A DNA stretch of 64,000 nt from Anaerolineales bacterium (GTDB lineage Bacteria > Chloroflexota > Anaerolineae > Anaerolineales > UBA11858), in contig JANTFT010000006.1 in the NCBI GenBank assembly GCA_024763275.1, positions 1,638 to 65,637 of the forward strand, given 5' to 3'. How positions within the stretch are numbered: position 1 is the stretch's first letter; every line of letters starts with the position of its first letter. Below the pieces are notes generated by a model that was not told the origin of the DNA, searched no databases, and saw only the letters and a list, made by a program, of their open reading frames with translations. This document shows positions 37,414 to 56,900 of this stretch, one piece after another. The translations under genes and the position numbers were made by a program.

Positions 37414-37647
37414 CGTGGCTTATTAACCTATTTTCCCATTCTACCTTATTTGACGCTGTAACCAGCGCTTATCTTCCGGCATGCTATAATGGCTGGGATG
37501 GGGGGGCATGATTTGAAACCGGTGCTAACAAAACTAACAGCCCGCGGAAGCTAAAAGGCTTTATAATTGGACATAAGAGAAAAAATCTCCTGAGAGAGAG
37601 GGGTTATGACCGCATTCCTTACAGTATTGTAAGGTATGCGCCATGAT

Positions 37648-37676
37648 TTGACGCTGGAGAGGTCTGCCGCTATAAT
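37648..37676 (+). promoter_or_regulatory. near-consensus sigma70 promoter of the TadE/TadG-vWA operon
   Basis: TTGACG (37648-37653), 17-nt spacer, TATAAT (37671-37676). This also argues for the ATG 37702 start. Confidence 0.55.
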
Positions 37677-37701
37677 GAGAATATTAAGCCAGGAAAATGA
37701 T

Positions 37702-38430
37702 ATGAATGGAAAGCGTAAGCCCTCCAGAGGGGATCATACCGGTCAGAGTTTTGTTGAGCTGGCGATAGTACTGCCCCTGCTGCTGTTCCTGCTGATCTCA
37801 TTTGTGGAGATTGGGGCGATCATTTACAACTATCTCTCTCTGCTGGACGTGGTCAGGGAAGCGGCCCGTTTTGCGGCTGACCGCGATCCAGAGGTGCTGA
37901 ACGGGGATATGAGCAACTATCCGATCAGCGCCTGTGAGGACGACGCTCTGCATTATTACCTGGACACTGCCTGTGTGGTAATCGGCACAAACTTCAACAA
38001 GGATATCACCCTCAACCCGGCTACGGATGACATCGCCATCTCGATTTTCACCATCGACAACAATGTGGTGGCGGACCGTAAACCCCATGACGCGGACAGG
38101 GTCTGGTCCCTCTACTCGGATAACTGGACCAAGAACTGTGATGGTTCCTTCCGTTCTAACACACCGTTTTTCCCCCAGCTGCCCGGCGATTCCTGGGTAA
38201 CCTATTCCACCCCGACCGCAGGTCCTGGCACGCCCACTCCAGGAGCGGGCACGGTAGTGCCGGGAGGACCGACCGATAAGGGCATCGTTTTAGTGGAGAT
38301 CTATTACTGCCACCATCAGCTGCTGAATCTGCCGCTGATCAGCAGTCTGATTCCCAACCCGGTCCCGCTGCATGCTTTTGCGGTCATGCCGGCACCTTTA
38401 GCAGCTCCTACAGCGACCCCTCTGCCTTAA
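37702..38430 (+). CDS. TadE-like (Flp-pilus minor pseudopilin-type) protein
   Basis: N-terminus GQSFVELAIVLPLLLFLLISFVEIGAIIY...AAREAARFAA-like is the TadE signature. Pro/Thr/Gly-rich stretch near the C-terminus. Confidence 0.8.
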   Translation: MNGKRKPSRGDHTGQSFVELAIVLPLLLFLLISFVEIGAIIYNYLSLLDVVREAARFAADRDPEVLNGDMSNYPISACEDDALHYYLDTACVVIGTNFNKDITLNPATDDIAISIFTIDNNVVADRKPHDADRVWSLYSDNWTKNCDGSFRSNTPFFPQLPGDSWVTYSTPTAGPGTPTPGAGTVVPGGPTDKGIVLVEIYYCHHQLLNLPLISSLIPNPVPLHAFAVMPAPLAAPTATPLP

Positions 38431-38446
38431 GGCAAAGCAGGTTCTT

Positions 38447-40087
38447 ATGAAAAAAAAGAAATCAGGACATCAAAGAGCGATCTTTTCCATCTTCTCTCAT
38501 AAGCTGGATCTCATCCACCGGGGGAGCACCCGGGAGCGGGGACAGGCGCTGGTGATCACCGCTGTGGCCTTCATGGCCATGCTGGCTTTTGCCGGGTTGG
38601 TGACGGACGCCGGCACCCTCTACCTGAATTTCACCCGCTTGAAAAGAGGCCTGGACTCCGCAGCTGTGGCAGCTGCCAACCAGATCCGGGACTCGTCCCT
38701 GCCAGCTGCCCAGCGCAAAGCCCTGATCCGGGAGTCCGCCCGGGAGATGCTGATGTTGAACAATGTCAGCGATATTTACTCCCTGGAAACCTACATCTGT
38801 GAGGACACCGGCATCCCGGCCGCTTTTGCTTCAATATGCCCTGCCTCTGGGGAGGATAAGCGCAAGCTGGCCTGGATCCAGGCTACCCAGAACAGCCCGG
38901 TGTATTTCCTGAGTCTGTTTGGCATAAACTCTATTCCCATCACCACCCATTCGATCGGTGAAGCTGCTTCTATTGATGTGGTGCTGGTAATTGATACTTC
39001 CGAGTCGATGGCCAGTGCAACCTCAGGCTATGACGCTAACTTTGACCCCTCGGCCTGCAACGCGGCCAACAACTGCCAGCCGCTGTTGGCTGCTAAAGAA
39101 GCGGCTAAAGCCATGGTTGATAAATTATTCGATGGTTACGACCGCGTTGCGGTGGTGACCTTTGATTTTAGCGCCACCATCCATGACCCTGATCTTTCGA
39201 CAAGTGACCTTTTGGAATCGGATCATACAGCAGTCAAAGCTGCCATTGACGCCATCCAGCTGCACGATGACACGGATCTGAATGACATTATCGCCACTGG
39301 TAAAAATCCCCTGGCGGGAGAGCTGAACCCGCTCGATATCGATGGGGATGGCACCTACGTGAGCGGCGTTCCGACAGGGTTTGGAGATGCCATTGTATCT
39401 ACCTGCACCGGATGTGGGGTGCGAGTTGCTGGGGATATCCTCAAAGCCCAGGGCCGGGTAGACAGTGTCTGGGTAATTGTACTGCTGTCAGATGGAGCTA
39501 CGAATGTGAGCGATCTGCCTGACGCTTCCGATGCCAATAATCCAGTCCCGGCTGGTTATATCAACGGTTTTTGCGGCGGAAACCCAGCCTTCCCCAGCCC
39601 AAACCGCATGTGGGATAAACCCTGGTGCACAGACAGCGATCCATCTACGCGCCACTGCGGGCCATTCCACGCCAACGCCGGGGAATGCCCTCCGGGTGCT
39701 GTCTGGGTAGGAAACAACACTCCTCCTTACGATGTGGAGGATTATGCCCGGGACATCACCGACCGGGTGGCTTTGCTGTATTCCACTAACAGCAACGAAC
39801 CCACTGGCGGTGAGGAAATCGCTATCTATACGATCGGGCTGGGAGTTGCAGCGGCTCCTCCTGATTATGACGGCGAGGAGATGCTGCGCTATATAGCCAA
39901 TATCGGGGACGACAACTTCCGCAACCCAATTCCGGACGACCCGACGGACGCTTATCCGCCCGATCCCTGTGACGGCGTCGCTCCTCAAACCTCCTGCGGC
40001 CAGTATTATTACGCTCCCAGCGGGGCATATTTGACCCAGATCTTCGAAAAAATTGCCGGGAGCATTTTCACCCGGATCACCCAGTAG
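38447..40087 (+). CDS. TadG-like N-terminal domain + von Willebrand factor A domain protein
   Basis: ERGQALVITAVAFMAMLAFAGLVTDAGTLYL (TadG/Tad_N-like). vWA MIDAS motif VVLVIDTSESM, with later LLSDGATN. Confidence 0.85.
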   Translation: MKKKKSGHQRAIFSIFSHKLDLIHRGSTRERGQALVITAVAFMAMLAFAGLVTDAGTLYLNFTRLKRGLDSAAVAAANQIRDSSLPAAQRKALIRESAREMLMLNNVSDIYSLETYICEDTGIPAAFASICPASGEDKRKLAWIQATQNSPVYFLSLFGINSIPITTHSIGEAASIDVVLVIDTSESMASATSGYDANFDPSACNAANNCQPLLAAKEAAKAMVDKLFDGYDRVAVVTFDFSATIHDPDLSTSDLLESDHTAVKAAIDAIQLHDDTDLNDIIATGKNPLAGELNPLDIDGDGTYVSGVPTGFGDAIVSTCTGCGVRVAGDILKAQGRVDSVWVIVLLSDGATNVSDLPDASDANNPVPAGYINGFCGGNPAFPSPNRMWDKPWCTDSDPSTRHCGPFHANAGECPPGAVWVGNNTPPYDVEDYARDITDRVALLYSTNSNEPTGGEEIAIYTIGLGVAAAPPDYDGEEMLRYIANIGDDNFRNPIPDDPTDAYPPDPCDGVAPQTSCGQYYYAPSGAYLTQIFEKIAGSIFTRITQ

Positions 40088-40099
40088 TACAGCACTTTC

Positions 40100-40140
40100 C
40101 TAACAGAATTGTTAACTTTTAGGCAGTTTTATGTTATACT
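40100..40140 (+). promoter_or_regulatory. variant copy of the locus-specific inverted-repeat/promoter element
   Basis: CTAACA-GAAT-TGTTAA (40100-40115) overlapping a TTAACT -35, then the extended -10 TGTTATACT (40132-40140), 33 nt before ATG 40173. Confidence 0.5.
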
Positions 40141-40172
40141 GGCTGTACTCATTTAAAGGGAACGAGTGAAAA

Positions 40173-42284
40173 ATGGCAGTGGGGCGGGTAGCTCACTCTA
40201 AAACCAGAGGGCGGGGCCAGGCGATTGTGGAATTTGTGATTGCCCTGCCGATCCTGCTTTTCGTGATTTTCGGCATCATCGAATTTGCCCGGATGGTCTT
40301 TGCCTGGATGGCGGTCCAGAACGCGGCCCGCTTTGGCATCCGTTATGCGGTGACCGGTGAGTACGATGAGGCTTACTGCGTTGAGGCCGGCAACCTGCTG
40401 GGTGCCGCTTATGTCAACGCCGATACCGATGGGGGTGATCCCCAGGACTGCCAGATTCCCGATTCCTATACCGGGGCCGATAAAGCCGATAAGGAGCGCG
40501 AGCTGATCGATATGGCCCGCCTGTTCTCGATCCGAGATGTCGCTGTGGGGGGAGGGACCGGGCTGTGGCTGCGTCCCAGCGTTTCTGGCAATTATGAACA
40601 GTACCTGGGCTTGCACAATGCCGCGTTTATAGGCCTGCCTGACGAGACCGGGTTTTACCATATCACGGTTTGCAGCAACCGCAGCGGGCAGTACGCCATG
40701 GATTACGGCAATTACGCCATCCCGCTTTGCAAGGATGTGGCTAGCGGCGTGTTAATGGATGATGCTGGCGGCCCGGGCGACCGGGTCAAAGTCCACGTGG
40801 AGCACCGCCATCCCCTGTTCCTGCCGCTGCTCTCCAATATCTGGCCTTCGGTCAGCCTGAACGCAGAGCGCGACGGCATCGTCGAAAAATTCCGCACCTC
40901 GCGCTCCCTGGGCGTATCCGGCCCCATCCTTTCGGCGCCCACCTGGACCCAGACGCCCACCATCACGCTCACGCCTACCATCACCTACACCCCTACAGAG
41001 ACCTATACGCCGACTCCTACCGCCACGGACATTCCGGTGGATTGCGACCTGATCGATATCGATTACAGCTTCATAGGGGATTACGGGGGGGGGTTCTTTG
41101 GCGCTCTGGTCAGGATTCGCAACAACAATCCCGTGCCCATCCACCTCTTCCAGGCGGATGTGGGCTGGGATCTGATTCCCCCCAGCCGCTATCTGTGGGC
41201 CATGCAGTTCAATTTGAGTCCCTGGGAGATCTTGGATGATTTCTCTCCTCCCACCAGCTGGGTGCCACATCCCCCGGTGGCGATGGCTGCAGGAGGACTG
41301 GGCGATTATGTGGCTCTCTTCAAGCCGGTCGCAGAACCCGTCCAGGGTGTGACCACGGTGAACCTGACCTTTGAGGATGGCTGTACAAAAGGCATCACAG
41401 CCAACCTGCCCACATCCACAGCTACCCTGACCCCGACCATCACCGACACGCCCACGGTGACCCCCACGCCGGACTGTTCACAGTACAGCATGTCAGCTTT
41501 CACCTTCCAGAACTACGCCATCCAGCGCTTAACGGTCTCCAACAGCGATGTTGTCGATGCCCGGGTGAGCTCCATCCAGCTGGACTGGAGCTATGCCGAG
41601 AATTTCGGGGCCGTGAATGGTTATCCCAACCTGAACGTCGACTGGTTCAGATGGGACAGCAGCTATTTCCATCTGGGAGGCAACGGCGACGGGAATATCG
41701 ACTCGAGTTCCCCCACCAGCTGGAGCGGATCCCTGCCCTTTGACAGCGGGGACAGCTATTCCTGGTCTCTGGATTTTGACAGCGATTGGGGCGGAGGCGG
41801 GCCGCTCTCTGGCGTGGTAAGCAGTGATTTTGGCGTGATCATCAATTTTGACAATGGCTGCCAGCTGCGGCGGGACGCGATACCCCGGCCGATCCATTCC
41901 TGGACGCCCTCTCCAACTCCCACAGCCAGTTTAACGGCAACACCCCCGCCGCCTCCCACTGACACCCCGCTACCCAGCAACACGCCGACGGCCAGCAACA
42001 CTCCGCCGCCCAGCAGCACGCCGACGACCACCTACACGCCGACCATCACCCCGTCACCCACGAGAACCCCGGTGCCATCTGCCACGCCGCTGCCAACCAA
42101 CACCCTCCCGCCTCCTACAAGGACGAACACGCCAATCCCGAGTTTTACACCGGTTCCTACCAACACTTATACGCCGGTGCCGACGCATTCACCGACGCCG
42201 ACGCCGATACCCACCTGGACTCCAGCCTGTCCCTTCGATGATCCCAACTGGCCCTGCCAGCCAACCTGGACGCCCACGCCGTAG
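40173..42284 (+). CDS. TadE-domain, Pro/Thr-linker-rich secreted/surface protein, paralog 1 (703 aa)
   Basis: N-terminus GQAIVEFVIALPILLFVIFGIIEFARMVFAWMAVQNAARFGIRYAVTGE. Three PT-rich linkers separate two unknown ~120-140-aa domains. C-terminal motif TWTPACPFDDPNWPCQPTWTPTP. Confidence 0.85.
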   Translation: MAVGRVAHSKTRGRGQAIVEFVIALPILLFVIFGIIEFARMVFAWMAVQNAARFGIRYAVTGEYDEAYCVEAGNLLGAAYVNADTDGGDPQDCQIPDSYTGADKADKERELIDMARLFSIRDVAVGGGTGLWLRPSVSGNYEQYLGLHNAAFIGLPDETGFYHITVCSNRSGQYAMDYGNYAIPLCKDVASGVLMDDAGGPGDRVKVHVEHRHPLFLPLLSNIWPSVSLNAERDGIVEKFRTSRSLGVSGPILSAPTWTQTPTITLTPTITYTPTETYTPTPTATDIPVDCDLIDIDYSFIGDYGGGFFGALVRIRNNNPVPIHLFQADVGWDLIPPSRYLWAMQFNLSPWEILDDFSPPTSWVPHPPVAMAAGGLGDYVALFKPVAEPVQGVTTVNLTFEDGCTKGITANLPTSTATLTPTITDTPTVTPTPDCSQYSMSAFTFQNYAIQRLTVSNSDVVDARVSSIQLDWSYAENFGAVNGYPNLNVDWFRWDSSYFHLGGNGDGNIDSSSPTSWSGSLPFDSGDSYSWSLDFDSDWGGGGPLSGVVSSDFGVIINFDNGCQLRRDAIPRPIHSWTPSPTPTASLTATPPPPPTDTPLPSNTPTASNTPPPSSTPTTTYTPTITPSPTRTPVPSATPLPTNTLPPPTRTNTPIPSFTPVPTNTYTPVPTHSPTPTPIPTWTPACPFDDPNWPCQPTWTPTP

Positions 42285-42337
42285 AATTGAGGTCATCCTC
42301 CTCAGGTAATAAAACGAAAGTCATCCAAGAAAATTTT

Positions 42338-42371
42338 ACTGACGCCTCCTTATTCCAGGCGTCAGTTTTTG
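42338..42371 (+). terminator. intrinsic terminator after paralog 1
   Basis: ACTGACGCCT-(9 nt)-AGGCGTCAGT followed by TTTTGA. Confidence 0.7.
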
Positions 42372-42564
42372 ATTCGCAGGGAACTGGACATCCCCGCCAG
42401 GGTAACAGCTGAAAACAGCCTGTCAGGAACATACGGGATCGGACATGCCGTAACATACTGTTAGCCGAAAAGCTCAATAAATAGCTCATATACCCCTTGA
42501 GTGTATACAAAATATGACAGTTAGGTTATTGGGCAGTAAAACTAAGCTAAATTTGCCCTCTCCC

Positions 42565-42618
42565 CTAACAGGGTTGTTAGTTTAAGACCCTTGCGGGAAA
42601 TGCACCCGATGCTACACT
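42565..42618 (+). promoter_or_regulatory. locus-specific inverted repeat + promoter module (copy B)
   Basis: CTAACAGGGTTGTTAGTTTA, then TTGCGG (-35, 42591-42596), 16 nt, TGCTACACT (42610-42618). Confidence 0.6.
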
Positions 42619-42643
42619 GATAGCGAAGGATAACCTGAAACGT

Positions 42644-43054
42644 ATGGCAGCTACCAGAGGGCAAAGGAAGAAGCTCATGACCAAGAGAAAACGCACCAAA
42701 TACCAGATTATCGGGCTGATCTCACTCTCCCTGATCATCGCCGCGGCCACCTACGGCTTTGCCGAAGTTAACACCTTTGGGACCGCCGGCCTGCTGGGGG
42801 CGGACTACGGGGTGCTGTCCGATTACCAGGTTTCCAGGATCTCCTACACCCTTGACGAAGCGGACCCCACCACTTTTGTGGCGGTAAGTTTCCAGCTTGA
42901 TGGGCAGCCTGGATCGGTAAATGCAGGAATTTCCGAAACCAGGACAAGTCACGTCATCTGGGCTGACAGTTGCGAATCCACCGGCTCCAACTGGATCTGT
43001 GCTTTCGACAGCAGCATCGATGTCCTGGCGGCCGATTGGCTGCACGTTCAGTGA
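42644..43054 (+). CDS. small secreted protein, paralog S1 (SipW-type-like signal region)
   Basis: Basic N-terminus, hydrophobic core IIGLISLSLIIAAATYGFAEVN, then ..YQVSRISYTLDEADPTTFVAVSFQLD..C..NWIC..LHVQ. Clear paralog of 47544-47921. ATG 42677 (behind AAGGAAG) is an alternative start. Confidence 0.7.
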   Translation: MAATRGQRKKLMTKRKRTKYQIIGLISLSLIIAAATYGFAEVNTFGTAGLLGADYGVLSDYQVSRISYTLDEADPTTFVAVSFQLDGQPGSVNAGISETRTSHVIWADSCESTGSNWICAFDSSIDVLAADWLHVQ

Positions 43055-43096
43055 ATTTTTCAAGACAGTAATTTTTTACCGGTATTAGAAAACATT

Positions 43097-43135
43097 AAAG
43101 AGGCGTGGATGATCTGCTATCCACGCCTTTTGCTT
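43097..43135 (+). terminator. intrinsic terminator after S1
   Basis: AAAGAGGCGTGGAT-(8 nt)-ATCCACGCCTTTT followed by GCTT. Confidence 0.65.
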
Positions 43136-43504
43136 GTGGAAGATTAATCAGAAGAGCGGTTCCCTGCCAGTACCAGACAACAACCACAGCCAGGGACAGT
43201 GATTCGGGATCGGATTGCATCGCCGCAGCTGTTTCCGGGGAGGGGAGGTCCCCGGGATTTCCTAAACACCGATGAGTATCCTGGCACAGATGGCAGTGGC
43301 AGAGAACGGGAACTGAGCGATCTGGTCTGGACACCTCCTCGCCGACTGAGCTCCTGTTCAGCCGGTACCTTTTATTAAGACCTGGAAAATCGTCCAGAAC
43401 AACCAAGGAATGAGGTTTGCATGAAAGCCTAACAGAGTTGTCAGGCTTTTTATCTGCGCCCCCGTAGAGAGGAATGCCGGACCAGCGAGAGAAAAGGCCT
43501 TCTT

Positions 43505-43558
43505 CTAACAGGATTGTTAGGTTAACTGCCTTGAATAACCTCCCCCTGATGCTACACT
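43505..43558 (+). promoter_or_regulatory. locus-specific inverted repeat + promoter module (copy C)
   Basis: CTAACAGGATTGTTAGGTTA, TTGAAT (43531-43536), 16 nt, TGCTACACT (43550-43558). Spacing is identical to copies B and D. Confidence 0.6.
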
Positions 43559-43659
43559 GGTTTTACCCTGCCTGGGCATGATTGGTGGGGAATCAGGGAA
43601 ATATCCACTGGCGAAGGACTTCAGCGAGAGTATCCAGACGGTGGGTGTTTCCAGCACAT

Positions 43660-45771
43660 ATGTTACTAAAAAACACAGCACAGCCCAAACGGACCGGCCA
43701 GTCGATGGTGGAGTTCATGCTGGCTCTACCGGTCCTGCTGTTTGTGATCTTTGGGATCATCGAATTCGCCCGCATGGTATTTGCCTGGATGGCGGTCCAG
43801 AATGCTGCCAGGTTCGGGATCCGCTATGCGGTCACCGGTGAGTTCAACGATATTTACTGCGTCCCGGCTGGAGCCATGCTGGGATTGGATTATGTAGCCG
43901 CCGATACTTTTAACGGTGACCCTCAGGACTGCCGGGTGCCCAATGATTATACTGGAGCGGATGGCACCGACATCGAGCGGGAATTGACCGACCTGGCCCG
44001 CCTGTATTCCATTCAGGATGCCGCTGAAGGGGGAGGGACAGGCCTGTGGTTCGAGCCTGCTGTTTCGGGGGATTATTCCCAGTACCTTTCCATGCATGAC
44101 CCGACCTTCATCGGCCAGGCTGATCAGCGGGGTTTCATCAATGTCACCGTATGCAGCAACCGCAACAACCAGTATGTGGTGGATTACTTCAATTATGACG
44201 TACCCCTCTGCTACGACAGCCTCGGACCTTTCTTGATGGATGACGCCGGGGGCCCGGGGGACCGGGTCAAAGTCCGGGTGGATCACACCCATCCCCTGCT
44301 GCTGCCGATCATCAGCAACATCTGGCCCACGGTCCATATCAACGCAGAGCGGGACGGCATCGTCGAGAAATTCCGCACCTCCCGGGTGCTGGGAGTTTCC
44401 GGCCCGATCCTTTCCGCGCCTACCTGGACGCAAACCCCAACGGTTACCAATACGCCGACCATCACTCAGACACCCACACCTTCGTTGACGCCAACCTCGA
44501 CCAACACCCCCATTCCGGTGGATTGCGACCAGATCACGGTCACCAACAGCTACGTCGGGCACTGGGTGTCCGGGTATTACATTCAATCAGTGGACATCCG
44601 CAACGACAATCCGGTTGACATCCACTTCCTTTCCGCCAATCAGGTCTGGCAGAAAGACCCCGCTGAGCGCTCGATATATGCCATGCGCTTTGATTCCAGC
44701 GGCTGGTACATGATGTATGATGGCGTCCCCGATACTACCTTTACGCCTTCTTCCCCGGTGACCATGGCGCCCGGGGCGACCGGCCAGTACATCGCTCTCT
44801 TCCTCCCTCGCTACGCTCCGGTTGTAGGCCTGACTTCTGCATCTCTGACGTTCGATGACGGCTGTGTCAAAGGCGCCTCTGTGGACATTCCCACCCCGAC
44901 CTTGACGCCCACGCCCAACTGCGATTACACATTGAGCGTCTTTGACTTCCACAACAGCCACCAGCAGGAGATTATGGTCACCAACAACGACCCCTGGAAT
45001 GACACCCGGGTGACGCGCATCCGCTTTGACTGGATCTACACCCAGCAGTGGGGCGCGGCAAACGGCTGGTCCGGTCTGGTACTGGACTGGATGAGCTGGA
45101 ACGGCGCCAGCGCCTGGGGAAATGGGGATAGTGCTCCGATCGATGTCCTGGCCATCACTGATACCCAGTCAGATTCTCCGGGAACCTGGCGGGGCCCACT
45201 GCAGTTCAACCACGGCAACTCTTATGCCCTGCGTTTCGATTTTGACGGTGGACCGGGAAATGGATCGCTCCCCAACGTGCACGCGGAGGATTTCGGGCTG
45301 TTCATCGATTTCGAAGATGGCTGTACGCTGTACCAGCCCTCCATACACAAGGGACTGGTAACCTGGACGCCGACCGCTACCCCGCTGCCTTCCAACACTC
45401 CCACGCCGACGCCCACCGGCACAGCTACCAACACGGCCCTGCCGCCCACGGACACGCCGATCCCATCCGCTACCGGGACGCCAACGATCACACCCAAACC
45501 CAGTAAAACACCAAAAAAGTCCCCCACACCGACCCCCTCGCGGACCCCGCTGCCCACCAGCACGCCGACCGTCGGGTTCACTCCCCTGCCTACCAGCACG
45601 CCGATCACACCAACAGCGACCCGAACGCCGGTTCCGACGATCAGCAATACCAATACTCCCACTCCCATACCCCCTACGCCAACCAACACCCCGATCCCGA
45701 CCTGGACCCCGGCCTGCCCGTTTGATGATCCCAACTGGCCCTGCCAGCCAACCTGGACGCCAACTCCTTAA
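43660..45771 (+). CDS. TadE-domain, Pro/Thr-linker-rich secreted/surface protein, paralog 2
   Basis: GQSMVEFMLALPVLLFVIFGIIEFARMVFAWMAVQNAARFGIRYAVTGE. Same domain/linker order and identical C-terminal TWTPACPFDDPNWPCQPTWTPTP. ATG 43660 chosen by alignment to paralog 1 (track start 43582). Confidence 0.85.
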   Translation: MLLKNTAQPKRTGQSMVEFMLALPVLLFVIFGIIEFARMVFAWMAVQNAARFGIRYAVTGEFNDIYCVPAGAMLGLDYVAADTFNGDPQDCRVPNDYTGADGTDIERELTDLARLYSIQDAAEGGGTGLWFEPAVSGDYSQYLSMHDPTFIGQADQRGFINVTVCSNRNNQYVVDYFNYDVPLCYDSLGPFLMDDAGGPGDRVKVRVDHTHPLLLPIISNIWPTVHINAERDGIVEKFRTSRVLGVSGPILSAPTWTQTPTVTNTPTITQTPTPSLTPTSTNTPIPVDCDQITVTNSYVGHWVSGYYIQSVDIRNDNPVDIHFLSANQVWQKDPAERSIYAMRFDSSGWYMMYDGVPDTTFTPSSPVTMAPGATGQYIALFLPRYAPVVGLTSASLTFDDGCVKGASVDIPTPTLTPTPNCDYTLSVFDFHNSHQQEIMVTNNDPWNDTRVTRIRFDWIYTQQWGAANGWSGLVLDWMSWNGASAWGNGDSAPIDVLAITDTQSDSPGTWRGPLQFNHGNSYALRFDFDGGPGNGSLPNVHAEDFGLFIDFEDGCTLYQPSIHKGLVTWTPTATPLPSNTPTPTPTGTATNTALPPTDTPIPSATGTPTITPKPSKTPKKSPTPTPSRTPLPTSTPTVGFTPLPTSTPITPTATRTPVPTISNTNTPTPIPPTPTNTPIPTWTPACPFDDPNWPCQPTWTPTP

Positions 45772-47010: not shown

Positions 47011-47425
47011 GGTTGGACTAACATAAGGAGTGGTACATATAAAGAGGGCATGTCAACGCGAACCTCCTCGGATGCTCCAGTATCGTCTCGCATGTCCGAT
47101 CCGACAAATACACCACGTCACGACTACAAACCGATACGCCCACAGCAACACCGGATACTTCTGGGCCGACCACATAGCCGCTGCCAACTCTACCCTAATT
47201 CTTTGCATGAAAGAGTGCAGAAAACGATGGAAAGCTTATAAGCGCCTTTTGATCTGGGTACCCTTTTCATGATGAGGCTATCAAAAATCAGAAACTTTTC
47301 GAGCCTTGAAAAGGATCACTTTGCCTGCCGCGATGTATTTTATAAGCTGACCTTTCAGGATTGTTAGCCGTTTTAGAGGACAAAACACGGGAAAAATCAC
47401 GCTATTCAACTAAAACTGGCCAAAC

Positions 47426-47543: not shown

Positions 47544-47921
47544 ATGAACTCAGTTATGAAATTTCGATATCGGATTTTAGCCCTTCTGGTTCTTGGAGTA
47601 ATCCTGAGTGCAGCCACCTATGGCTTTGCCGCTGCGAACAGTGTTCCCGACGGTGTTGCCGGCGAAGGTTCCGGAGCGATCTCTGGTTATACGGTTTCCA
47701 ACGTTGTCTACACTCTGGACAGCTCAGATCCCACTCAATTCGCCAGTGTTGCCTTTACCCTGGACGCGAATGCATCGGATGTATATGCAGGTATTGGGAA
47801 CGGATCTGTTATCTACTGGACCAGCTGCGCAGGCGGCCCCACTAATTTCACCTGTGATCTGACCAGTTCTACAGTCAGTGTTGCCGCTGCAATCGAACTG
47901 CATGTCTCTTCCGTGCAGTAA
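47544..47921 (+). CDS. small secreted protein, paralog S2 (SipW-type-like signal region)
   Basis: GGAGG RBS at 47533-47537. MNSVMKFRYRILALLVLGVILSAATYGFAAANSVP..ISGYTVSNVVYTLDSSDPTQFASVAFTLD..C..NFTC..LHVSSVQ. Confidence 0.75.
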   Translation: MNSVMKFRYRILALLVLGVILSAATYGFAAANSVPDGVAGEGSGAISGYTVSNVVYTLDSSDPTQFASVAFTLDANASDVYAGIGNGSVIYWTSCAGGPTNFTCDLTSSTVSVAAAIELHVSSVQ

Positions 47922-47949
47922 TCCCCTGGTTTGCAAATAAAAGAGAATA

Positions 47950-47984
47950 GAGGGGCGTGGTAAGGTACAATTACCGCGCCTCTC
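47950..47984 (+). terminator. strong hairpin between S2 and the signal-peptidase gene (terminator/attenuator candidate, no U-tract)
   Basis: 14-bp stem GAGGGGCGTGGTAA / TTACCGCGCCTCTC (two G:U pairs) with a 7-nt loop. No T-run follows. Confidence 0.4.
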
Positions 47985-48000
47985 TCTGTAAATAGAAAAC

Positions 48001-50361
48001 ATGATCTTGTTTGTTCGAAAAAATTTCCGAATTATCCTGATTTTCACGGTACTGGCAGTTGTACTGTGGATATTATTTGCGCCCCTGAAGCTGGGAGGCC
48101 AGGTATCCTATGTAATTATCACAGGGAACAGCATGGAACCGGAGATTGAGTTTGGAGATCTTGTGATAGCCAGGGCAGCGTCGAGCTATCAGCTTGACGA
48201 CCGGGTTGTTTACCGTCATCCCCAGGTTGGTTTTGTATTCCACAGGATCATCGGTCGGGACGATAATACTTTTACATTAAAGGGTGATAATAATGAATGG
48301 ACGGATTCTTATCACCCCCTGAAGAGTGATATTATTGGCAAGTACTGGTTCTTGATACCAGGGGGTGGAGCTGCAATTAATAAACTCCGCGAGCCAGTGT
48401 TCTTTGTTATTTTTACCCTTATAATTCTTTTAGTGATTGCGTTCATCTTCTTATTCCAGAGAAAAGAAATTCCTCTAAAGAAGTTGCGCTCGAAAAGGCA
48501 TCTTATGGACACTCAACAAACTCCTTCTACCGGTGAATTCCGCCAGGAAATACTGCTGGTTTTAGGTATCATAGCCATCGCCGCTCTGATATTCGGGGTG
48601 ATTTCTTTTACCCGTCCTCAAACCAAATCCATTGCGGATAACCTGACCTTTGAACATAGCGGTGGATTTGAATATAGCGCTCAGGACCAGGACAATATCT
48701 ACGATAGTGAACAGATCAAGACTGGCGAACCGATCTATCTGCTGCTTACGTGTGATATGAATATGGATTATTCCTATGAGTTTCTGGCCCAGAGGATGAC
48801 GAACAAAGAAGCAGAGCAGATAACCGGAACCTATCGGGTTGATGCATTGTTATCTGATATTGATGGCTGGGAACGCTCCTTTTCCCTGATATCGGATACG
48901 GATTTCAAGGGGTCTTCTTTTAAATCCAATATGGATCTGGATCTATGTGATATCCGTTCCCTGATCATTGAAAAAGAGGAAAAAACCGAAGCAAAGAATC
49001 GCTGGTACAACCTGACTATCTTACCAAATGTAAAACTCCAGGGCAGTATAGAAGGCCATCCTTTTCAGGAGAACTATCAAGCAGCGATCAATTTCCAGAT
49101 CGACACGAATATCATGAGGTTGCCTGATGGTCTTGACGGAATCGTCCTGAACCAGGAAGGTATGATTGAAAACTCGCGGGAAGTACCCAACACGATGCTG
49201 ATATTTGGTAGGGAGATCAGTGTGAAAGATGCCAGGAGAATTGGAGTGATCGTCTTCATACTCTCCCTGCTTGGAGCAGTTTATCCAGCCTGGTCCTTGA
49301 TCAGGGACATCAGATTTTCTGACGTATCACGAATCCAGGTCCAGTATTATCCTTTATTGGTGGATATTGAAGGAGGAAACCCTGCTAATCAGGCTGAACA
49401 GGTAGTTGCAGTAGCTTCCTTTTCCGATCTGACAAAAATGGCTGAGCGATATGGAGCAATGATCATGCATGAAAGGTTAGGGAGTTATCACCGCTACTCA
49501 ATTCAGGATGATCAAACAGTCTATCAATACGCCATCGAAGTGTTCAAGGAAGGATCTCTCTTCCCTAATATGAACGATTTTAAGAAATCAATCAGGCAGG
49601 CTATCGATGAAAACCAGCTCGAGCTGTACTACCAACCTGTAGTACGACTCCAAGATAAAGCAATTGTTGGGGTTGAAGCGTTCCTGCGCTGGTCACACCC
49701 AGAATTTGGAATACTGTATCCTGCTGATTTTATCTCCCATGCTGAAGAGGCCGACCTGATAGCAGATATCGATCGCTGGGTGTCCAGAAAGATCTGTTGG
49801 CAGATTCACAAATGGAAAAATGAAAACGTTCCGCTTGTTCCAATTTCGGTCAATCTTTCCCCGGAGACGATAGTAAGCAACGAGTTCATTCGTGGTTTTC
49901 TGGCCACCATGCTTGAAAACCAGTGCGATCCGGGTCTGATTCAAATAGAGATAAACCGATCCAATCAAGTCTTTCAGAGTGAAAAAGTAATGGATCATAT
50001 AAACCAGCTACATGAGGTCGGAGTCCGCCTGGCGGTAGATGACTTTGCGACAGATGCTGCGAATCAGATTAATCAGATATTACAGATGCCAATAAATACA
50101 ATCAAGATTGATCGAACTGTCATCCAGGAAATCACTGGAAACCCTAAAACTCAACGGCTGGTCGGTGCAATCGCCACAATGGCAAAAGGACTTGATATGG
50201 ATGTCGTCGCTCAGGGCGTCGAATCGGAAGAAGATTTGAAAGTCCTTAAAGCACAGAAGATAGAGATTGCCCAGGGATTCTATCTTGGTAATCTGGTCCA
50301 GGCTCAGGGGTTGGTTGACTTGTTAGAAAAACCGGTAGGATCCAAAACTAAAGAGGGGTAA
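48001..50361 (+). CDS. SipW/ER-type (Ser-His) signal peptidase I fused to an unknown extracytoplasmic domain and a C-terminal degenerate EAL domain
   Basis: aa 41-47 TGNSMEP, aa 81-83 HRI and aa 94-98 KGDNN form the archaeal/SipW-type S26 signature. Four predicted TM segments (aa ~10-30, 133-152, 184-203, 414-434). aa ~530-775 carry EAL-domain motifs YYQPVV, VEAFLRW, SVNLS, EINRS, DDFATDAA, KIDR, AQGVES, AQGFYLG. Confidence 0.85.
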   Translation: MILFVRKNFRIILIFTVLAVVLWILFAPLKLGGQVSYVIITGNSMEPEIEFGDLVIARAASSYQLDDRVVYRHPQVGFVFHRIIGRDDNTFTLKGDNNEWTDSYHPLKSDIIGKYWFLIPGGGAAINKLREPVFFVIFTLIILLVIAFIFLFQRKEIPLKKLRSKRHLMDTQQTPSTGEFRQEILLVLGIIAIAALIFGVISFTRPQTKSIADNLTFEHSGGFEYSAQDQDNIYDSEQIKTGEPIYLLLTCDMNMDYSYEFLAQRMTNKEAEQITGTYRVDALLSDIDGWERSFSLISDTDFKGSSFKSNMDLDLCDIRSLIIEKEEKTEAKNRWYNLTILPNVKLQGSIEGHPFQENYQAAINFQIDTNIMRLPDGLDGIVLNQEGMIENSREVPNTMLIFGREISVKDARRIGVIVFILSLLGAVYPAWSLIRDIRFSDVSRIQVQYYPLLVDIEGGNPANQAEQVVAVASFSDLTKMAERYGAMIMHERLGSYHRYSIQDDQTVYQYAIEVFKEGSLFPNMNDFKKSIRQAIDENQLELYYQPVVRLQDKAIVGVEAFLRWSHPEFGILYPADFISHAEEADLIADIDRWVSRKICWQIHKWKNENVPLVPISVNLSPETIVSNEFIRGFLATMLENQCDPGLIQIEINRSNQVFQSEKVMDHINQLHEVGVRLAVDDFATDAANQINQILQMPINTIKIDRTVIQEITGNPKTQRLVGAIATMAKGLDMDVVAQGVESEEDLKVLKAQKIEIAQGFYLGNLVQAQGLVDLLEKPVGSKTKEG

Positions 50362-50377
50362 GGAGTCCTTGATCAGC

Positions 50378-50836
50378 ATGAGACTGAAATGGCGACCGCT
50401 GGCGGCTTTTATGTTTTTGATTTTTGCAGTACTGGTGGTCGTGTCTGTAATGAACGCTTTTGCTACTGCCAACACTGTTCCTCAAACCAGAGCTGATAAG
50501 AACAGTATAGGTCTGGGAGTCAATGAGCTCCAGCCGCCAGAATGTGTCGGGTTGGGGTTGACCAATATCGTAGATATCGGTGCTGGTGAAACGGGTACAA
50601 GCGCCAATGATCTGATACTAGGGACAGCTAATTCTGACGCTGTGATCAGGGGCGGGGCAGGAAATGACTGTATCCTTGGCGGGGCAGGAAATGAACGACG
50701 TTGGTTTTTCTTCTTCTGGATTCCAGGTATTTTTGGGGACGAAGGAAACGATGTGATTATTGGCGGTCCCGGAAATGATGTGTGTTATGGCGGGGCTGGT
50801 AATGACATTTATTACGGCTGTGAAATAACATACTAG
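50378..50836 (+). CDS. small secreted protein S3 with RTX-like GGxGxD repeats
   Basis: AAGGAG RBS at 50360-50365. The signal region ...VVVVSVMNAFATANTVPQT resembles S2 (AAANSVP). Repeats are GGAGNDCILGGAGNE...GDEGNDVIIGGPGNDVCYGGAGNDIYYG. Confidence 0.65.
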   Translation: MRLKWRPLAAFMFLIFAVLVVVSVMNAFATANTVPQTRADKNSIGLGVNELQPPECVGLGLTNIVDIGAGETGTSANDLILGTANSDAVIRGGAGNDCILGGAGNERRWFFFFWIPGIFGDEGNDVIIGGPGNDVCYGGAGNDIYYGCEITY

Positions 50837-50980: not shown

Positions 50981-53900
50981 GTGTCTATGATTCCCGCTTC
51001 GAGTAATATAACAACAAAGCACTTCCGCTGGCTTGGATATTTAACAGCTATCATATTAAACGTTTTCCTGCTGGTAGATTTACCATCCCCAAGCCTGGCA
51101 AAGCCATTAGCGGCAGCTGCTCCTGCGGTGACAATTGCTCCCTCGTCAGTGATGATCGGCGAGGATTTTGATTTTTTGGTCACCTTTAACAATACCGGAA
51201 CAGATTCTGGTTACGGGCCGTTCATTGATCTGGTATTCCCGTACACCGGCCAGGACGGCGATGACGGGATCGAATATTATTCTTCCTCCTATCTGGGTGC
51301 GTCCCTGGAAGATGACATCCAATACTTCCCGGATCAAGGCGGGGGGTGGGGATGTGTCACTCATCCCTGGCTGCGTGATAATACCGGAAGCTATGTGGAC
51401 GTTTGTGGAAGAGCAGGTGACCAGTTTGTCTCCATCCGTCTGCCGTTCGGATCCTTCACACCCGATCAGCCCCAGCTGGATATCACTGTGAACGCCCACT
51501 TGAGCATTAATGCTGATCTTAATCCAGGATTGTTCATCTATGGCCGGGGTGGATTTATGTTTGGCGAAACCCCAGAAGATGATTGGTGCTGCGGTGACAC
51601 CCCCTTTGCGGTCCCCAATGGTACAGACAGCACAACCTGGCCAGCGACCCCGGTCACACCCCAGGTGATAACCTTCAGCAAAGCCTATACCGGCCCGGGC
51701 AATACCGAGGACGAGACTTCCACCGGCCCGAATTTCCCCCGCCAGTATACCCTGACTGTCGATATCGCCAGCGGCCAGACCCTTACCAATATCGAGATCC
51801 AGGACCAGCTGCCGGATAACGTCCAGTTCATCGGCATCGACGCCGGGGGTACCACAGCTGGTTATACTGTGACCTCCCTGCCGAGTACCTCCACTCCAGG
51901 AGGGACGTTGTCCTTGAATTACGCCAGCGGAAGCGGGACGGTAGTGGTCACCTATGACTTTTATATCCCCGAATTGTATGACCAGGATGGGGACACGCTC
52001 TTTGATGAGCCGGTGATCGATCCACTCTCCGGCGATGATGTCTCTTCAGCCAATATCGCCTGGGTGGATGCTTCCTGGGATCCAGTAGACCCCCGTGATC
52101 CAGTAGCGCCCCTTACTTCCGATGCCACCTGCCCGACCTGCCCGCCGCTGCACACCCTGATGGATAAATCGCTGGCTATCCAGAAAAGCGTGGCTGTTGT
52201 GCCTGGCACCGGCGGAGGCCCGTTAGGCGACCAGGTTGCCCCGAATGCGATCCTGGAGTATACCCTTTCAATCCAGGTTTCAGATTACTTCACATTGGAC
52301 AATCTGGTTGTCACCGATACGATCTCGGATGGCCAGCATGTTTTACCTGCCTCGACCTTCACACCTACGGTCCAGGTCAGCAGCAACCCGGGGGCTTTTG
52401 GCCCGCTAGCGTTTAACAGCTCGAATTATGAAATTAGCTGCGATTACACTGGCGCTACAATTACAGCACCTCCTCCTACAGAATGCACCATTGTCACGGG
52501 GGGTGCGACCGGTCAGACAACACTCACGTTCAGGCTGTCAGATGAGATCAATGCTAATTTGTCTGATGGGACGATGCGGGGTGGATGTGTCAATCCGGTT
52601 TCTCCCTTTGGTCTGTACTCACCCTGCGATCGCTCCAACCTGCGTGATGGGCCAACGACTGCAACGATCATTTATAGAGCCAAGGTGCTGGACCAATTTG
52701 TGGATGATTATCCTTCGGGCGATATCAGTGTTGACCAGGGAGATGAACTGGATAACACAGTGGACGTGACTGGAGATGTGCTAGACAACACTTCAGGTGG
52801 AGTAGTTGGAGTGGAGTCTGATGATGCCGCAGCCGGCACAGCCATCGGACGTGAAACCCTGTCTAAATCAATTTACGCCATAAATGGCGAGACAAATTCA
52901 GCTCTCTGGGATCGGGATGCGCTTGGTCGGGTCAGGGTAAATCCCGGGGATGTTGTGACATACGAGCTGGAATATGATCTATTGACCTCTGACGTCGAAG
53001 AACTTACCTTTGACGATTATTTCCCGCTGCCGGTTTTTGATGTTACCGACCCTGATGATGATGGTGCTGCTGGTCCTTCCTGGACATTCTCGAGTTCAGG
53101 GGGTATTCCTGCCCCGGGAGTTGTTGGTTTGCTCCTGCCCGGAGACACCTTTTATCAGTATATGACTGATGGGTTGAGTGGGGGTACGGGCACACTATCG
53201 CCCTCGACCAATAACCCAATTCCCACGCAGGATCCTGTGATCACGGCAGATGGCCTGAACAACAAGATCAATATCTATTACGCGGATTATGATGATACCC
53301 GCAATCAGTCCAAGACCGTGGATCTGCTGATCTCGATCACAGTTTCTGACGATCCCTTTGCGGACGGTCTGTTCCTGACCAACATGGCCCATGCCTTTGA
53401 GGGCAGCACCAATGCGGGCACGAATACCGAAAATGCGATTATCCAATTTGTGCTCGGTGAGCCGGTGCTGGTATCAACCAAAGGGATTATATGGTCCAGT
53501 AATGCAGATGCCAGTGTTGTGTTCGATCCCCTCCCGGCTGGCCCGGTTGGTATTACATTCCAGGACCCCTCTTTTGCACCCCGCTGGACAGGAACTCCAG
53601 GAATCATCAATTCCAGCGGCCTGGCTGCCAACCCGATCGACAGCGATCTGAGCGGCGTTGACGCTAGTGACACGGTCACCTTTGCCATCACGATTGAAAA
53701 TCAGGGCAGCAGTATCAACGGCGCCTTTGACATCCAGCTCAGAGATATGATCGATACCGCTTTTTACCAGGTTCCTGCTACTGGAGCTGATCTGAACCTA
53801 CAGGTTTATTACGGGGATGGCACTGGCCCAATTGCGTATAGATCTATCAGGCTCAACGGACCGAATCCGTTCTGCACGGCGAGCGCTAATGCCGATGATT

Positions 53901-56900
53901 GCGGCCTGGAATTATTTAACCAGGGCATCGAGCTGATCGATCCGGTCGGAGCAGGGGTCTGCTCTGCGCATGATCCCAATCTTGGCAATAACGTCATCCT
54001 CATCACTTATGATCTGGTCCTCAGGGATGATGTCAACCCTGGGCAGGCTCTGAACACGTCCTCTGTGTTCCATTATGCCGGCTCGGAGGGAGGGCCGAAT
54101 CACCTGGAGGGGGTCAATCCCCTGGAGGATGACGCCACCGTAGATGTGATCGGTGGGCTGGAAAAGACCCTGGTGGAGACGGAGATTGTCTCAGCCACCA
54201 ATGTGGATGATTTTATCAATGATATCTATGAGGCTGTCATTGGAGAATTGGTCACTTACCGGATCTCCGCCATTGTTCCTGAGGGGGAAGTGCCTGGAGC
54301 CAGGCTGGTGGATCATCTTGACGGTGGGCTGGCCTTTGTCTCCTGTGATGCTGCTGTCATTCCCAACCCGGCTGCTTCAGTGGGGATCTCAACTGATTTT
54401 GGCTCTGGCTCGACAACCGACTTTTCCAGTGTTTGCCCTGCGACCGAGGCTTCCGGAGTATCCAATAACGGACAGGATATCGTTTTCGATCTGGGGAACC
54501 TGGTCAACAGCGATCGGAACAACACTACCGAAGAACGGATCGTGATCACCTACCAGGTGGTTGTGCTGAATGTGAGCGGGAATCAGGCCGGGACACTCCT
54601 TGATAATCAGGTTGATTTCACGATGAATGCTGGCTCTGGCGACGTGGTGCTGGCGACAGCCGACGCCCAGGATGTGACGGTCATCGAACCGGCAGTAATA
54701 ACTGAGAAATACACCCCGGCCGGGACGACCGGTACATCCACAAGCGGTGATGCTGGCGATCCGGTGTCCTACACGATCACGCTTAGCAATCCATCCACCC
54801 CGGCGGATACGGATGCCTTTGATGTGGAATTCAATGACAGTTTCCCGATGTGCCCGGACCCAACCGACGGGTCGGCGGTGCGTGACCTGGCAATCGATTC
54901 CCAGAGCGGCGGGGCCACTTTTATTCTGACCGGGGACAATACAGCCGGGTGGCAGTTGAGCGCCACTTATGATGGCGCTCCTGGAACTCCGATCGATTTT
55001 GCCCCGGGGGAGACGGCCACTGTCGATCTCTCCGGGACGCTGGCCTATTGTGTCACTCCGGGATTGTCGGTCGACAATACCGGGAATACGACCTGGACCA
55101 GTCTGAGCGGGGATTATGCTTCGGTGGCCCGATCGACCTATAACCCGGACGCCCTGGAGCGGACGGGCGGGGATGGCGTGAACGGTGCCCTGAATGATTA
55201 TGCCAGCCAGGCTACAGCGAGCGCTGTGATTGTCAACCCGACCAACACCAAATACATCATCAGCACCTCAGAAGCCCATACCGGCCTGGTGAACGGGCTG
55301 GAAAATCTGGCCATTGGGGAGATCGTCCGCTTCCGCCTGGTGTCTGTCATTCCTGAAGGAACCAGCCCGAACTTCCAGATCAGGGATCTGCTGCCCGGGG
55401 GATTGATATTCCTGAACGATGACACATCTGTGGTCGCCTTTGTTTCCGATGGTGGCATCACGTCTTCGCCAGCTGGAACTCTTCCTGTACCGGCTGTCCC
55501 CAATATCTGCAACCAGGTCGGTTCAACTGCGGATGCCAGCACCCCGGTGATGGATCCGGCGAACTGCACCCTGGCCGACAACAATGTCAGCAGAAGCCCC
55601 AGCACCAGTCTGGACGGGGATGATGTCTTTGCCGTGCCGGGAAGGGATGTCTATTTCAAACTGGGCGACCTGGTCAACAACGACAGCGACGCGGATTCCG
55701 AGTATGTAGTGATCGAGTTCAACGCCCTGGCGCACAACTTCAGCACGAACCAGAACGATTTTGGGGATACTGTCACCAATCAGAGCCAGGTCTACATCAC
55801 AGGCAGCCCCAATGGCGGTCTGTCAACAGCTGCAACGCTAAGAGTTGCTGAGCCAGTGATCAGCGTGACCAAATCCCTGGTTCCTCCTCTGCCAGTAGAT
55901 GCTGGCGACCCCATCCAATATGAGATCGTTTTCAGCAATGCGGCCTCGGGTGATGCCGGGGCTACCGCTTATGACCTGGAGCTGACAGATACTTTCGATG
56001 CCTATCTCGAAGCCCTGACCATATCCTCCGTCAGCACAACGCAGGGTGGGGTCTGTGTGGGAGATGGAGCAGGGACAACAGCCTTCACTCACTCGGAATC
56101 TCTGGCAGCGGGCGCCCTGACAGTGGACCTTTCCTGCCTGGATCCGGGCGAGAGCGTCACGGTCAACGTGACCGGCAATGTGGTTGATAATGTTCCTGCC
56201 GGCACAACGCTGCTTAACAGCGCTGTGGGGACAGGGACCAGCCTGGAGGGCGCCAACGGCACGACTGGCAACTCCACGGGCTCTGACACCCCCGGAGCAT
56301 CCGGATTGGACACAGGAGAACGCGACGGCAGCGATAGCGATACAGGCGGCCCCGATGATTATTATGATGCCGGTACTGCCAACCACAGCCTGGCCGTCCC
56401 TGTGATAAGCAAGTCCGTTGAGCCACCCGGTGAGTGGACCATCGGGGAAAGCTTCACCTACGACCTGGTCATTACCCTTCCGGAAGGCGTCACGCCGGAT
56501 ATGGTGGTCTATGATGACATACCGGATGGACTGGAATTCGTCAGCTACAACCTGATCACCACCACAGCCGGTGCTGGCAGTTTGCTGGTGGAGGATTTTG
56601 ATGGTACTCTGCCATCTCCTGTTGTGACCGCGGCAGGGGGCTCTGGTGGAGACCTGGAATTGGACTTCGGGGATACCACCACAAACGAGGAATATCCCAA
56701 TAACACAAACAACAACAGCTTCCAGGTTCAGATCACCGTTCAGGTCCTGAACATTGCCAGCAATCAGAACGGGGTCGTCCTCACCAACCAGGGCGAGCTG
56801 CGCTATTCCAGCGGCACAACTGCGACAGGCACAGTGGACATTGAAATCATTGAGCCGGTTCTGAACATCGCTAAAACGGTGGATGACGATACCCCGGGTC

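Follow-up and report, generated by a model that had tools for sequence, protein, structure and literature searches.

A signal peptidase fused to DUF5305 and a degenerate EAL domain in Anaerolineae: a possible c-di-GMP-gated step in the maturation of a dedicated set of secreted proteins

[quoted passage not shown] Such a gene lies in the stretch considered here, 64,000 nucleotides of an Anaerolineales bacterium (Chloroflexota; GenBank assembly GCA_024763275.1, contig JANTFT010000006.1, positions 1,638 to 65,637 of the forward strand), hereafter the window, where an ATG-to-stop open reading frame (ORF) at 48001-50361 on the plus strand encodes 786 amino acids. The original prediction, made from the letters and translated reading frames alone, described the product as a SipW-type signal peptidase fused to a catalytically degenerate EAL domain that might bind c-di-GMP and control, from inside the cell, the maturation of secretory proteins outside it. 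The reading frame and all the motifs then quoted are where they had been placed; GNSMEP lies at residues 42-47, FHRI at 80-83 and KGDNN at 94-98 in the N-terminal part, and EAFLR at 559, SVNLS at 616, EINRS at 650, DDFATDAA at 680, KID at 702, AQGVE at 737 and AQG at 757 in the EAL part. The answer developed below, to which we would give an even chance of being right, is that the protein combines a dedicated signal peptidase resembling SipW and TafD, a DUF5305 accessory module, and an EAL domain serving mainly as a c-di-GMP sensor.

The three-part architecture is a recurrent feature of the Anaerolineae. Pfam hidden Markov models (HMMs) place Peptidase_S24 at residues 32-114 of the fusion protein (E 5e-9), DUF5305 (PF17231) at 290-510 (33.6 bits against a gathering cut-off of 29) and EAL at 530-763 (E 6.6e-60). 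A scan of one genome per species recovered 411 relatives; in the best 80 loci the complete fusion, which the original prediction had proposed to seek by an architecture search, was found in more than 60 Anaerolineae genomes, among them the isolates Ornatilinea apprima P3M-1, Levilinea saccharolytica KIBI-1, Thermanaerothrix daxensis GNS-1 and T. solaris, and it also occurs in a metagenome-assembled genome (MAG) of Anaerolinea thermophila. Its presence in so many species-level genomes, isolates included, rules out an artefact of assembly or gene calling and, together with the HMM E-values, means that the domain pattern is not due to chance. Metagenomes add about 35 full-length homologues (30-77% identity), assigned to Chloroflexota where named, and the database label of the named homologues is merely "signal peptidase I". 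In the closest genomic relatives (L018 and L024, 72% identity) the homologous gene is broken into shorter ORFs of 425 and 428 amino acids, a split that probably reflects an indel error in assembly and not a true pseudogene, as tblastn spans residues 3-785. A larger family of signal peptidase-DUF5305 proteins of 500-600 amino acids, found in Anaerolineales and Actinobacteria, has no EAL domain. In the window, the region of the fusion gene (48001-50000) has a G+C fraction of 0.44 against 0.53-0.59 around it.

The enzyme at the N-terminus had been assigned to the Ser/His type of the endoplasmic reticulum, archaea and SipW, as opposed to the Ser/Lys type of LepB, and this assignment is borne out. 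The NCBIfam model for archaeal-type signal peptidase I (TIGR02228) matches above its cut-off (61 bits against 51.85), whereas neither the bacterial-type model TIGR02227 (24.4 bits against 47) nor the SipW equivalog NF046067 (34.1 bits against 190) reaches its own; judged by these scores, the peptidase is SipW-like in type and no SipW orthologue. A search of Protein Data Bank (PDB) sequences with the N-terminal 500 residues as a single sequence gave no match, a family profile being required. With a profile of the N-terminal domain built from 23 relatives, the best solved matches are human SEC11C (E 1.3e-11) and SEC11A (E 3.2e-11), whose Ser/His/Asp motifs line up with SMEP, HR and KGDNN, and the bacterial Ser/Lys enzymes score far more weakly. 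The catalytic residues S44 and H81, and with them D96 and D102, are invariant both in 25 metagenomic homologues and in all 65 EAL-bearing genomic homologues in which the N-terminus is present, and the signal peptidase looks, from this conservation, catalytically competent.

How the peptidase is disposed relative to the other domains can be predicted with some consistency. Four hydrophobic segments (about residues 8-30, 131-155, 183-205 and 411-438), together with a basic N-terminus and a basic loop at 156-182, suggest by hydropathy and the positive-inside rule the same topology that had been proposed at the outset, and an AlphaFold2 model of the full protein concurs (mean predicted local distance difference test, pLDDT, 80; predicted template modelling score, pTM, 0.41). 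The model runs from the first transmembrane segment (TM1) through a beta-rich peptidase domain, TM2, a disordered basic loop and TM3 to a confident beta-sandwich (208-407), followed by the TM4 helix (408-439), a small alpha/beta subdomain (441-513) and, after a linking helix, the EAL barrel. The peptidase and the beta-sandwich are thus predicted to lie outside, and the alpha/beta subdomain and the EAL domain in the cytoplasm.

The outer domain of about 210 residues, at first taken as unknown, turned out to have a name: with TM4 and the first 75 or so cytoplasmic residues, this stretch of about 205 residues is, by its Pfam match, DUF5305, and the modelled order of beta-sandwich, transmembrane segment and cytoplasmic alpha/beta subdomain agrees with the published description of that family, in which two transmembrane helices go with the extracellular beta-sandwich and the cytoplasmic alpha/beta fold. 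DUF5305 corresponds to TafG of the haloarchaeal Tat-fimbriae and has been proposed as a signal-peptidase accessory subunit in AbpX/TasA-superfamily loci; the dedicated peptidase TafD, encoded adjacently, is needed for processing of the major subunit TafA, and signal peptidase-DUF5305 fusions have already been noted in Anaerolinea thermophila, Actinoplanes and Tepidiforma (PMC11821415, PMC12337348, bioRxiv 10.64898/2026.01.04.697558). In all three reports an EAL domain on a protein of this kind goes unmentioned. The cytoplasmic alpha/beta subdomain, present also in relatives that have no EAL domain, is the most conserved segment of the fusion protein (mean pairwise identity 0.72 within the clade). 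A Foldseek search with the full-length model ranked EAL structures alone.

Whether the EAL domain is an enzyme or a receptor is central to the question. In fold it is unmistakable (Foldseek TM-score 0.90 to 3n3t; root-mean-square deviation about 2 Å to 3n3t and 2r6o), and a residue-by-residue alignment to 2r6o, the structure of TBD1265, gives the same mapping of altered motifs as had been read from the letters, the changes at catalytic glutamates persisting after alignment. Retained are the Glu of EAL and the following Arg (EAFLR), the Asn of SVNLS, the first Glu of ExxE, the DD pair, KID and the final Gln (QG), whereas ExxE has become EINR, DDFGTGY has become DDFATDAA, longer by one residue, and EGxE has become QGVE. 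An active EAL domain is characterised by seven catalytic residues (E175, N233, E265, E268, D295, K316 and E352 in RocR numbering) and four that recognise c-di-GMP (Q161, R179, D296 and D318) (PMC2952852), to which we added a canonical loop 6, DFG(T/A)GYSS. The window protein has five of the seven catalytic residues, with R653 in place of E268 and Q738 in place of the general base E352, all four recognition residues (Q545, R563, D681 and D704) and every residue of the M1 metal site, and its loop 6 reads, non-canonically, DDFATDAANQ with an insertion. Work on RocR and TBD1265 by Rao in 2008 and 2009 and by Tchigvintsev in 2010 is said to have found the general-base glutamate and loop 6 both required for efficient catalysis. 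By its residues, then, the domain departs from an active phosphodiesterase in both the catalytic set and loop 6 and keeps its means of recognising the ligand, much as had been anticipated, and poor phosphodiesterase activity, or none, would be expected of it.

That degeneracy holds for the window protein and less well for the family, 16 of whose 65 members retain all seven catalytic residues, three of them (O. apprima included) together with D296. The general-base position is occupied by Glu in 22 genomes, Val in 15, Gln in 10, Lys in seven and Met in five, Gln being the residue of the window's clade, which is further marked by EINR, D(D/N)FATDxANQI with an insertion of two residues, and AQGVE; the equivalent of D296 is Asn in 37 of the 65 and in most of that clade. 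The canonical DFG(T/A)GYSS loop occurs in none of the 65. Against this variation, Q545, E559, R563 and N618 are invariant, and E650, K702, E741 and Q758 are each found in at least 61. With synonymous divergence (dS) saturated in almost all comparisons, domains were compared by nonsynonymous divergence (dN) alone, and relative to close relatives the dN of the EAL domain is equal to or below that of the peptidase and below that of the outer beta-sandwich; as far as such comparisons tell, the domain is under purifying selection and is not decaying. Binding can outlast such losses elsewhere, FimX showing it with just four of ten conserved residues (PMC3527489) and LapD with KVL in place of EAL (PMC3032553, PMC3032545), and the fused EAL domain probably binds c-di-GMP without destroying the messenger.

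What else has been attached to the same scaffold bears on this point. The N-terminal 525 residues match 940 clusters at E <= 1e-30 in a library clustered at 50% identity, and from the top 150 representatives of these signal peptidase-DUF5305 clusters the 40 longest were surveyed for C-terminal additions: 26 carry an EAL domain, five an HD_5 domain of HD-GYP type and one, a member of the set P0011...P0373, a formylglycine-generating enzyme-like (FGE-sulfatase) domain in their place, with nothing recognisable on the rest. GGDEF, PilZ and other signalling domains are found on none of these 40. On this census, recurrence among the cytoplasmic additions is confined to EAL and HD-GYP, the two folds by which c-di-GMP is bound and cleaved, and because both recur, the case for c-di-GMP binding and for inside-out control is strengthened.

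If the peptidase is controlled, its substrates should matter, and the flanking genes offer two candidates. Immediately upstream lies a gene for a small secreted protein and, starting 8 nucleotides past the peptidase stop codon, one for a secreted RTX-type calcium-binding repeat protein. The two share a signal made of an n-region, an h-region and then (Y/F)(G/A)FAAAN(T/S)VP in the small proteins or AFTAAN(T/S)VP in the RTX proteins. By a strict form of the motif, the upstream ORF is recognised at 53 of 76 loci and the downstream one at 54 of 74. Across 58 sequences of the small protein N32 never varies, and Y26, F28, A29 and A30 hardly do, a pattern that points towards cleavage at AxA|N. The trio of small protein, peptidase and RTX protein is kept with the whole wider cluster at 52-54% identity (L001, L002), at 31% identity in surroundings that differ in other respects (L003), around the HD-GYP variant and around one EAL-less relative, and two further EAL-less loci (in an Anaerolineales bacterium and in Arthrobacter) retain the upstream small protein. 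The peptidase therefore probably cleaves both flanking proteins at AxA|N, as their signals suggest, and the likely targets are these two families and not, as first supposed, secretory proteins in general; with motif and synteny both conserved, a general housekeeping role is unlikely, though further proteins may be processed as well.

The small protein itself is an orphan. It has no match in Pfam, NCBIfam or PHROGs, its profile finds nothing below E 0.5 among PDB sequences, and Foldseek returns nothing below E 0.1, just a generic Ig-like resemblance. The AlphaFold2 model (pLDDT 82) shows a cleavable helix, a flexible segment and a six-stranded beta-sandwich with two conserved cysteines; the flexible N-terminal segment (NSVPDGVAGEGSGAISG), of about 17 residues, is conserved, and its modelled form is suggestive, and only suggestive, of a donor-strand-like feature of filament subunits. 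The idea that the protein is a pilin of the TasA, Abp or Taf kind drew no support from any of these searches, and since no relation to those subunits is detectable the locus is not filed under the TasA superfamily.

From these parts a mechanism can be proposed. Like SipW with TasA and TafD with TafA, the peptidase would be dedicated to the proteins that bear its tag. Occupancy of the EAL domain by c-di-GMP would be relayed through the cytoplasmic alpha/beta subdomain and through TM3 and TM4 to the outer face, where it would switch cleavage on or off or otherwise modulate it, and a surface or matrix structure would accordingly mature in step with the cellular c-di-GMP level. As a guess from the general biology of the messenger, high c-di-GMP might promote processing, and in relatives with an intact HD-GYP domain or a fuller set of EAL residues the domain might also hydrolyse the signal, in the manner of a trigger enzyme. 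The more specific claim, that binding of c-di-GMP to the EAL domain (or to HD-GYP in sister proteins) switches cleavage of a private set of proteins tagged AAAN(T/S)VP, we advance tentatively from the sequence comparisons, at somewhat less than even chances; on that reading, commitment to a surface or matrix structure would be made at the step of signal-peptide removal.

Several observations weigh against the proposal. The domain arrangement of the AlphaFold2 model is uncertain, as its pTM indicates, which makes the relay path a conjecture. Several degenerate EAL proteins (YdiV, BluF and CsrD) are not known to bind c-di-GMP at all, and with Gln where the general base should be, slow hydrolysis may still proceed. 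The window holds no diguanylate cyclase gene; elsewhere, and in favour of the proposal, canonical GGDEF active-site signatures (RFGGDEF, RLGGDEF) lie a few kilobases from the fusion in O. apprima (L038, near 11815) and in a MAG (L063, near 4255), and in Arthrobacter bambusae (L008, 2305-6316) separate GGDEF, PAS-EAL and receiver genes stand 2-6 kb upstream of an EAL-less signal peptidase-DUF5305 gene, an arrangement hinting that a link to c-di-GMP may be made in trans where no such domain is fused. Finally, both the HD and the HHExxDGxGYP motif are preserved in the HD-GYP variant, P0050, which looks catalytically intact, and together with the full catalytic sets in 16 of the 65 EAL-bearing members this means that the ancestral logic could be enzymatic output and not sensing.

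That last point leads to a reading in which signalling runs the other way, the peptidase and DUF5305 sensing something outside, such as substrate load or assembly state, and the EAL or HD-GYP domain lowering local c-di-GMP in response. An N-terminal sensor driving an EAL output is the usual logic of membrane-bound EAL proteins, and the complete catalytic sets and intact HD-GYP motifs just mentioned count in its favour; yet the window protein has neither the general base nor an equivalent of E268, most of its clade has changed D296 to Asn, and loop 6 is non-canonical in every member. On this view the output would be weak or lost in the window's clade, and purifying selection with invariant binding residues is unexpected for a lost enzymatic output. 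We consider outside-in signalling unlikely, if worth a serious hearing. A different view keeps the catalysis and drops the coupling: the EAL domain would be a working, perhaps slow or conditional, phosphodiesterase merely anchored to the peptidase, with no bearing on proteolysis. The very strong HMM match to active phosphodiesterases, the presence of nine of the ten residues usually listed as essential and the chance that Gln could still ligate a metal ion speak for this, but the general-base glutamate and loop 6, on both of which efficient catalysis by RocR and TBD1265 reportedly depends, are features that have changed, many relatives have Val, Met or Lys at the general-base position, and a fusion found in more than 60 genomes, always C-terminal to the cytoplasmic subdomain of DUF5305, points to coupling; we attach little probability to it. 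Equally improbable, in our estimate, is that the EAL domain is a nucleotide-independent scaffold for dimerisation or docking, for example to a cytoplasmic partner or the translocon, in the way of YdiV or BluF. EAL domains commonly dimerise, and degenerate EAL proteins with non-nucleotide functions exist, CsrD among them, binding of c-di-GMP by degenerate EAL-only proteins having been judged unlikely in general (PMC2952852). A scaffold would nevertheless have little reason to keep four recognition residues and a whole M1 site that are invariant or nearly so in 65 genomes, and HD-GYP, another fold acting on the same ligand, has been fused independently at the same position. The reading of the EAL domain as chiefly a c-di-GMP sensor is, of those considered, the one that we retain.

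The wider neighbourhood (Table 1) contributes context. In the gap between the small-protein and peptidase genes lies a strong hairpin that might work as a partial terminator or attenuator, fixing the proportion of subunit to peptidase. Five related loci share its stem (GGGCGTGGTA...TACCRCGCC) without change, and a T-rich tract comes after it. Scans for promoters and terminators gave counts at chance level. Further upstream are genes of TadE and TadG type, conserved in L001, L002 and L010 and not in L003, and a paralogue of the small protein lies between two of them, an arrangement that recurs in L001, L002 and L010. The two TadE-like paralogues of about 700 residues (40173-42284 and 43582-45771) contain long Pro/Thr-rich linkers and end at the C-terminus in one and the same sequence, ...IPTWTPACPFDDPNWPCQPTWTPTP, and each adjoins, before or after, a copy of the small protein with the AATYGFA signal. 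Between the TadE-like and small-protein genes, 45999-47241 holds what is left of an IS3-like transposase, namely an HTH_Tnp_1 ORF and a short piece of rve_3, and the matching stretch in L001 and L002 has no transposase-like gene. Downstream, a giant DUF11-repeat protein is present also in L001 and L002 and absent in distant relatives; its signal peptide is of the ordinary kind and lacks the AANTVP motif. It is an unusual adhesin in that a complete sortase, with its TLFTC cysteine, comes straight after its own LPDTG, and its relatives measure 2872 and 2875 amino acids. The TadE/TadG genes and this sortase-bearing protein were considered as core parts of the system and set aside as clade-limited, being absent at 31% identity.

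Table 1. Positions in the window of the fusion gene, its domains and neighbouring features.
Feature	Coordinates	Strand	Size or residues	Evidence and remarks
Fusion gene: SipW/Sec11-type signal peptidase I, DUF5305 and degenerate EAL	48001..50361	+	786 aa	Pfam/NCBIfam; homologues
S26B-type peptidase domain, predicted extracytoplasmic	48091..48375	+	aa 31-125	S44, H81, D96, D102; TIGR02228 and SEC11 profile match
TM1	48022-48090	+	aa 8-30	Brackets the peptidase domain with TM2
TM2	48391-48465	+	aa 131-155	Brackets the peptidase domain with TM1
DUF5305 beta-sandwich, predicted extracytoplasmic	48616..49230	+	aa 206-410	Pfam DUF5305; AlphaFold2 all-beta, pLDDT ~90; bounded by TM3 (aa 183-205) and TM4 (aa 411-438)
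DUF5305 alpha/beta subdomain, predicted cytoplasmic, between membrane and EAL	49318..49545	+	aa 440-515	AlphaFold2; also in EAL-less relatives
Degenerate EAL domain, predicted cytoplasmic	49588..50328	+	aa 530-776	Pfam EAL; 2r6o alignment; Foldseek
Candidate substrate 1, small secreted protein	47544..47921	+	125 aa	Signal ATYGFAAA|NSVP; upstream in all contexts examined
Candidate substrate 2, secreted RTX-type Ca-binding repeat protein	50369..50836	+	155 aa	Signal NAFATA|NTVP; Pfam HemolysinCabind
Small-protein paralogue between two TadE-like genes	42644..43054	+	136 aa	Signal ...AATYGFAEVNTF; aligns with the small-protein family
Intergenic hairpin, small-subunit gene to peptidase gene	47949..47985	+		Minimum free energy -28.4 kcal/mol, z -4.5; in 79-nt gap
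TadE-like, TadG/vWA and two TadE-like proteins with Pro/Thr-rich linkers	37636..45771	+	264 aa, 546 aa, two of ~700 aa	Pfam TadE, Tad, VWA_2
DUF11-repeat surface protein, LPDTG then sortase domain	50981..59656	+	2891 aa	Pfam DUF11, Sortase

Set beside known systems, the locus is closest in plan to those of TafD/TafG and the AbpX/TasA superfamily, which likewise place a dedicated Sec11/SipW-type peptidase and DUF5305 next to small secreted subunits, and near which, in the AbpX loci, diguanylate cyclases and HD-GYP proteins are sometimes encoded (bioRxiv 10.64898/2026.01.04.697558). It differs from them in the degenerate EAL domain on the cytoplasmic end of DUF5305 and in its small proteins, in which no likeness to subunits of the TasA, Abp, Taf or DUF1102 kind could be detected. 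SipW-TasA/TapA of Bacillus subtilis also sets an ER-type Ser/His peptidase in an operon with its own substrates, matrix-fibre proteins that carry a cognate signal peptide, but SipW has neither DUF5305 nor EAL, and the candidate substrates in the window are unrelated to TasA. The eukaryotic signal peptidase complex (SEC11A/C with SPC22/23; 7p2p, 7p2q) is the closest solved catalytic relative, and the luminal beta-sandwich accessory SPC22/23 has been likened by analogy to DUF5305 in the AbpX preprint (bioRxiv 10.64898/2026.01.04.697558); that complex, however, has no cytoplasmic signalling domain.

On the signalling side, the nearest parallel is LapD-LapG-LapA, where a degenerate cytoplasmic EAL receptor controls, across the membrane, an extracytoplasmic protease of surface proteins, its targets being of the RTX-repeat type (PMC3032553, PMC3032545). 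LapD, though, is a HAMP-GGDEF-EAL protein with a KVL motif that sequesters a separate cysteine protease, LapG, whereas the window protein has no HAMP or GGDEF domain, keeps the Glu of EAL and has its protease, an S26 signal peptidase, within the one chain; the NCBIfam LapD model gives it 71 bits, not reaching the cut-off of 1020, and the likeness is best taken as an analogy of mechanism and not as homology of systems. FimX similarly has a non-catalytic EAL domain that binds c-di-GMP, as is predicted here, and serves the biogenesis of a surface structure, type IV pili, but it keeps only four of the ten conserved residues against nine in the window protein, is soluble, and acts through PilZ and PilB (PMC3527489).

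The components, and the fusion of signal peptidase with DUF5305, were already known, and what appears new is the addition of a degenerate EAL or an HD-GYP domain and a cognate signal shared with two orphan families. In the literature searched we found no description of a signal peptidase-EAL (or HD-GYP) fusion or of the AAAN(T/S)VP signal with its two families, and nothing on the control of a type I signal peptidase by a second messenger. The motif would be a previously unannotated sorting signal that defines two families of secreted proteins, and the cytoplasmic subdomain of DUF5305 acquires a suggested role, that of a relay from cytoplasm to peptidase, which bears on archaeal and bacterial TasA-like pili. 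With cultured carriers at hand (the four isolates named above) the idea is directly testable. If it is true, removal of the export signal would itself be regulable, by way of a widespread and conserved sensor fusion, and the little-studied phylum Chloroflexota would have a post-translational c-di-GMP output that amounts to a single-chain counterpart of LapD and LapG.

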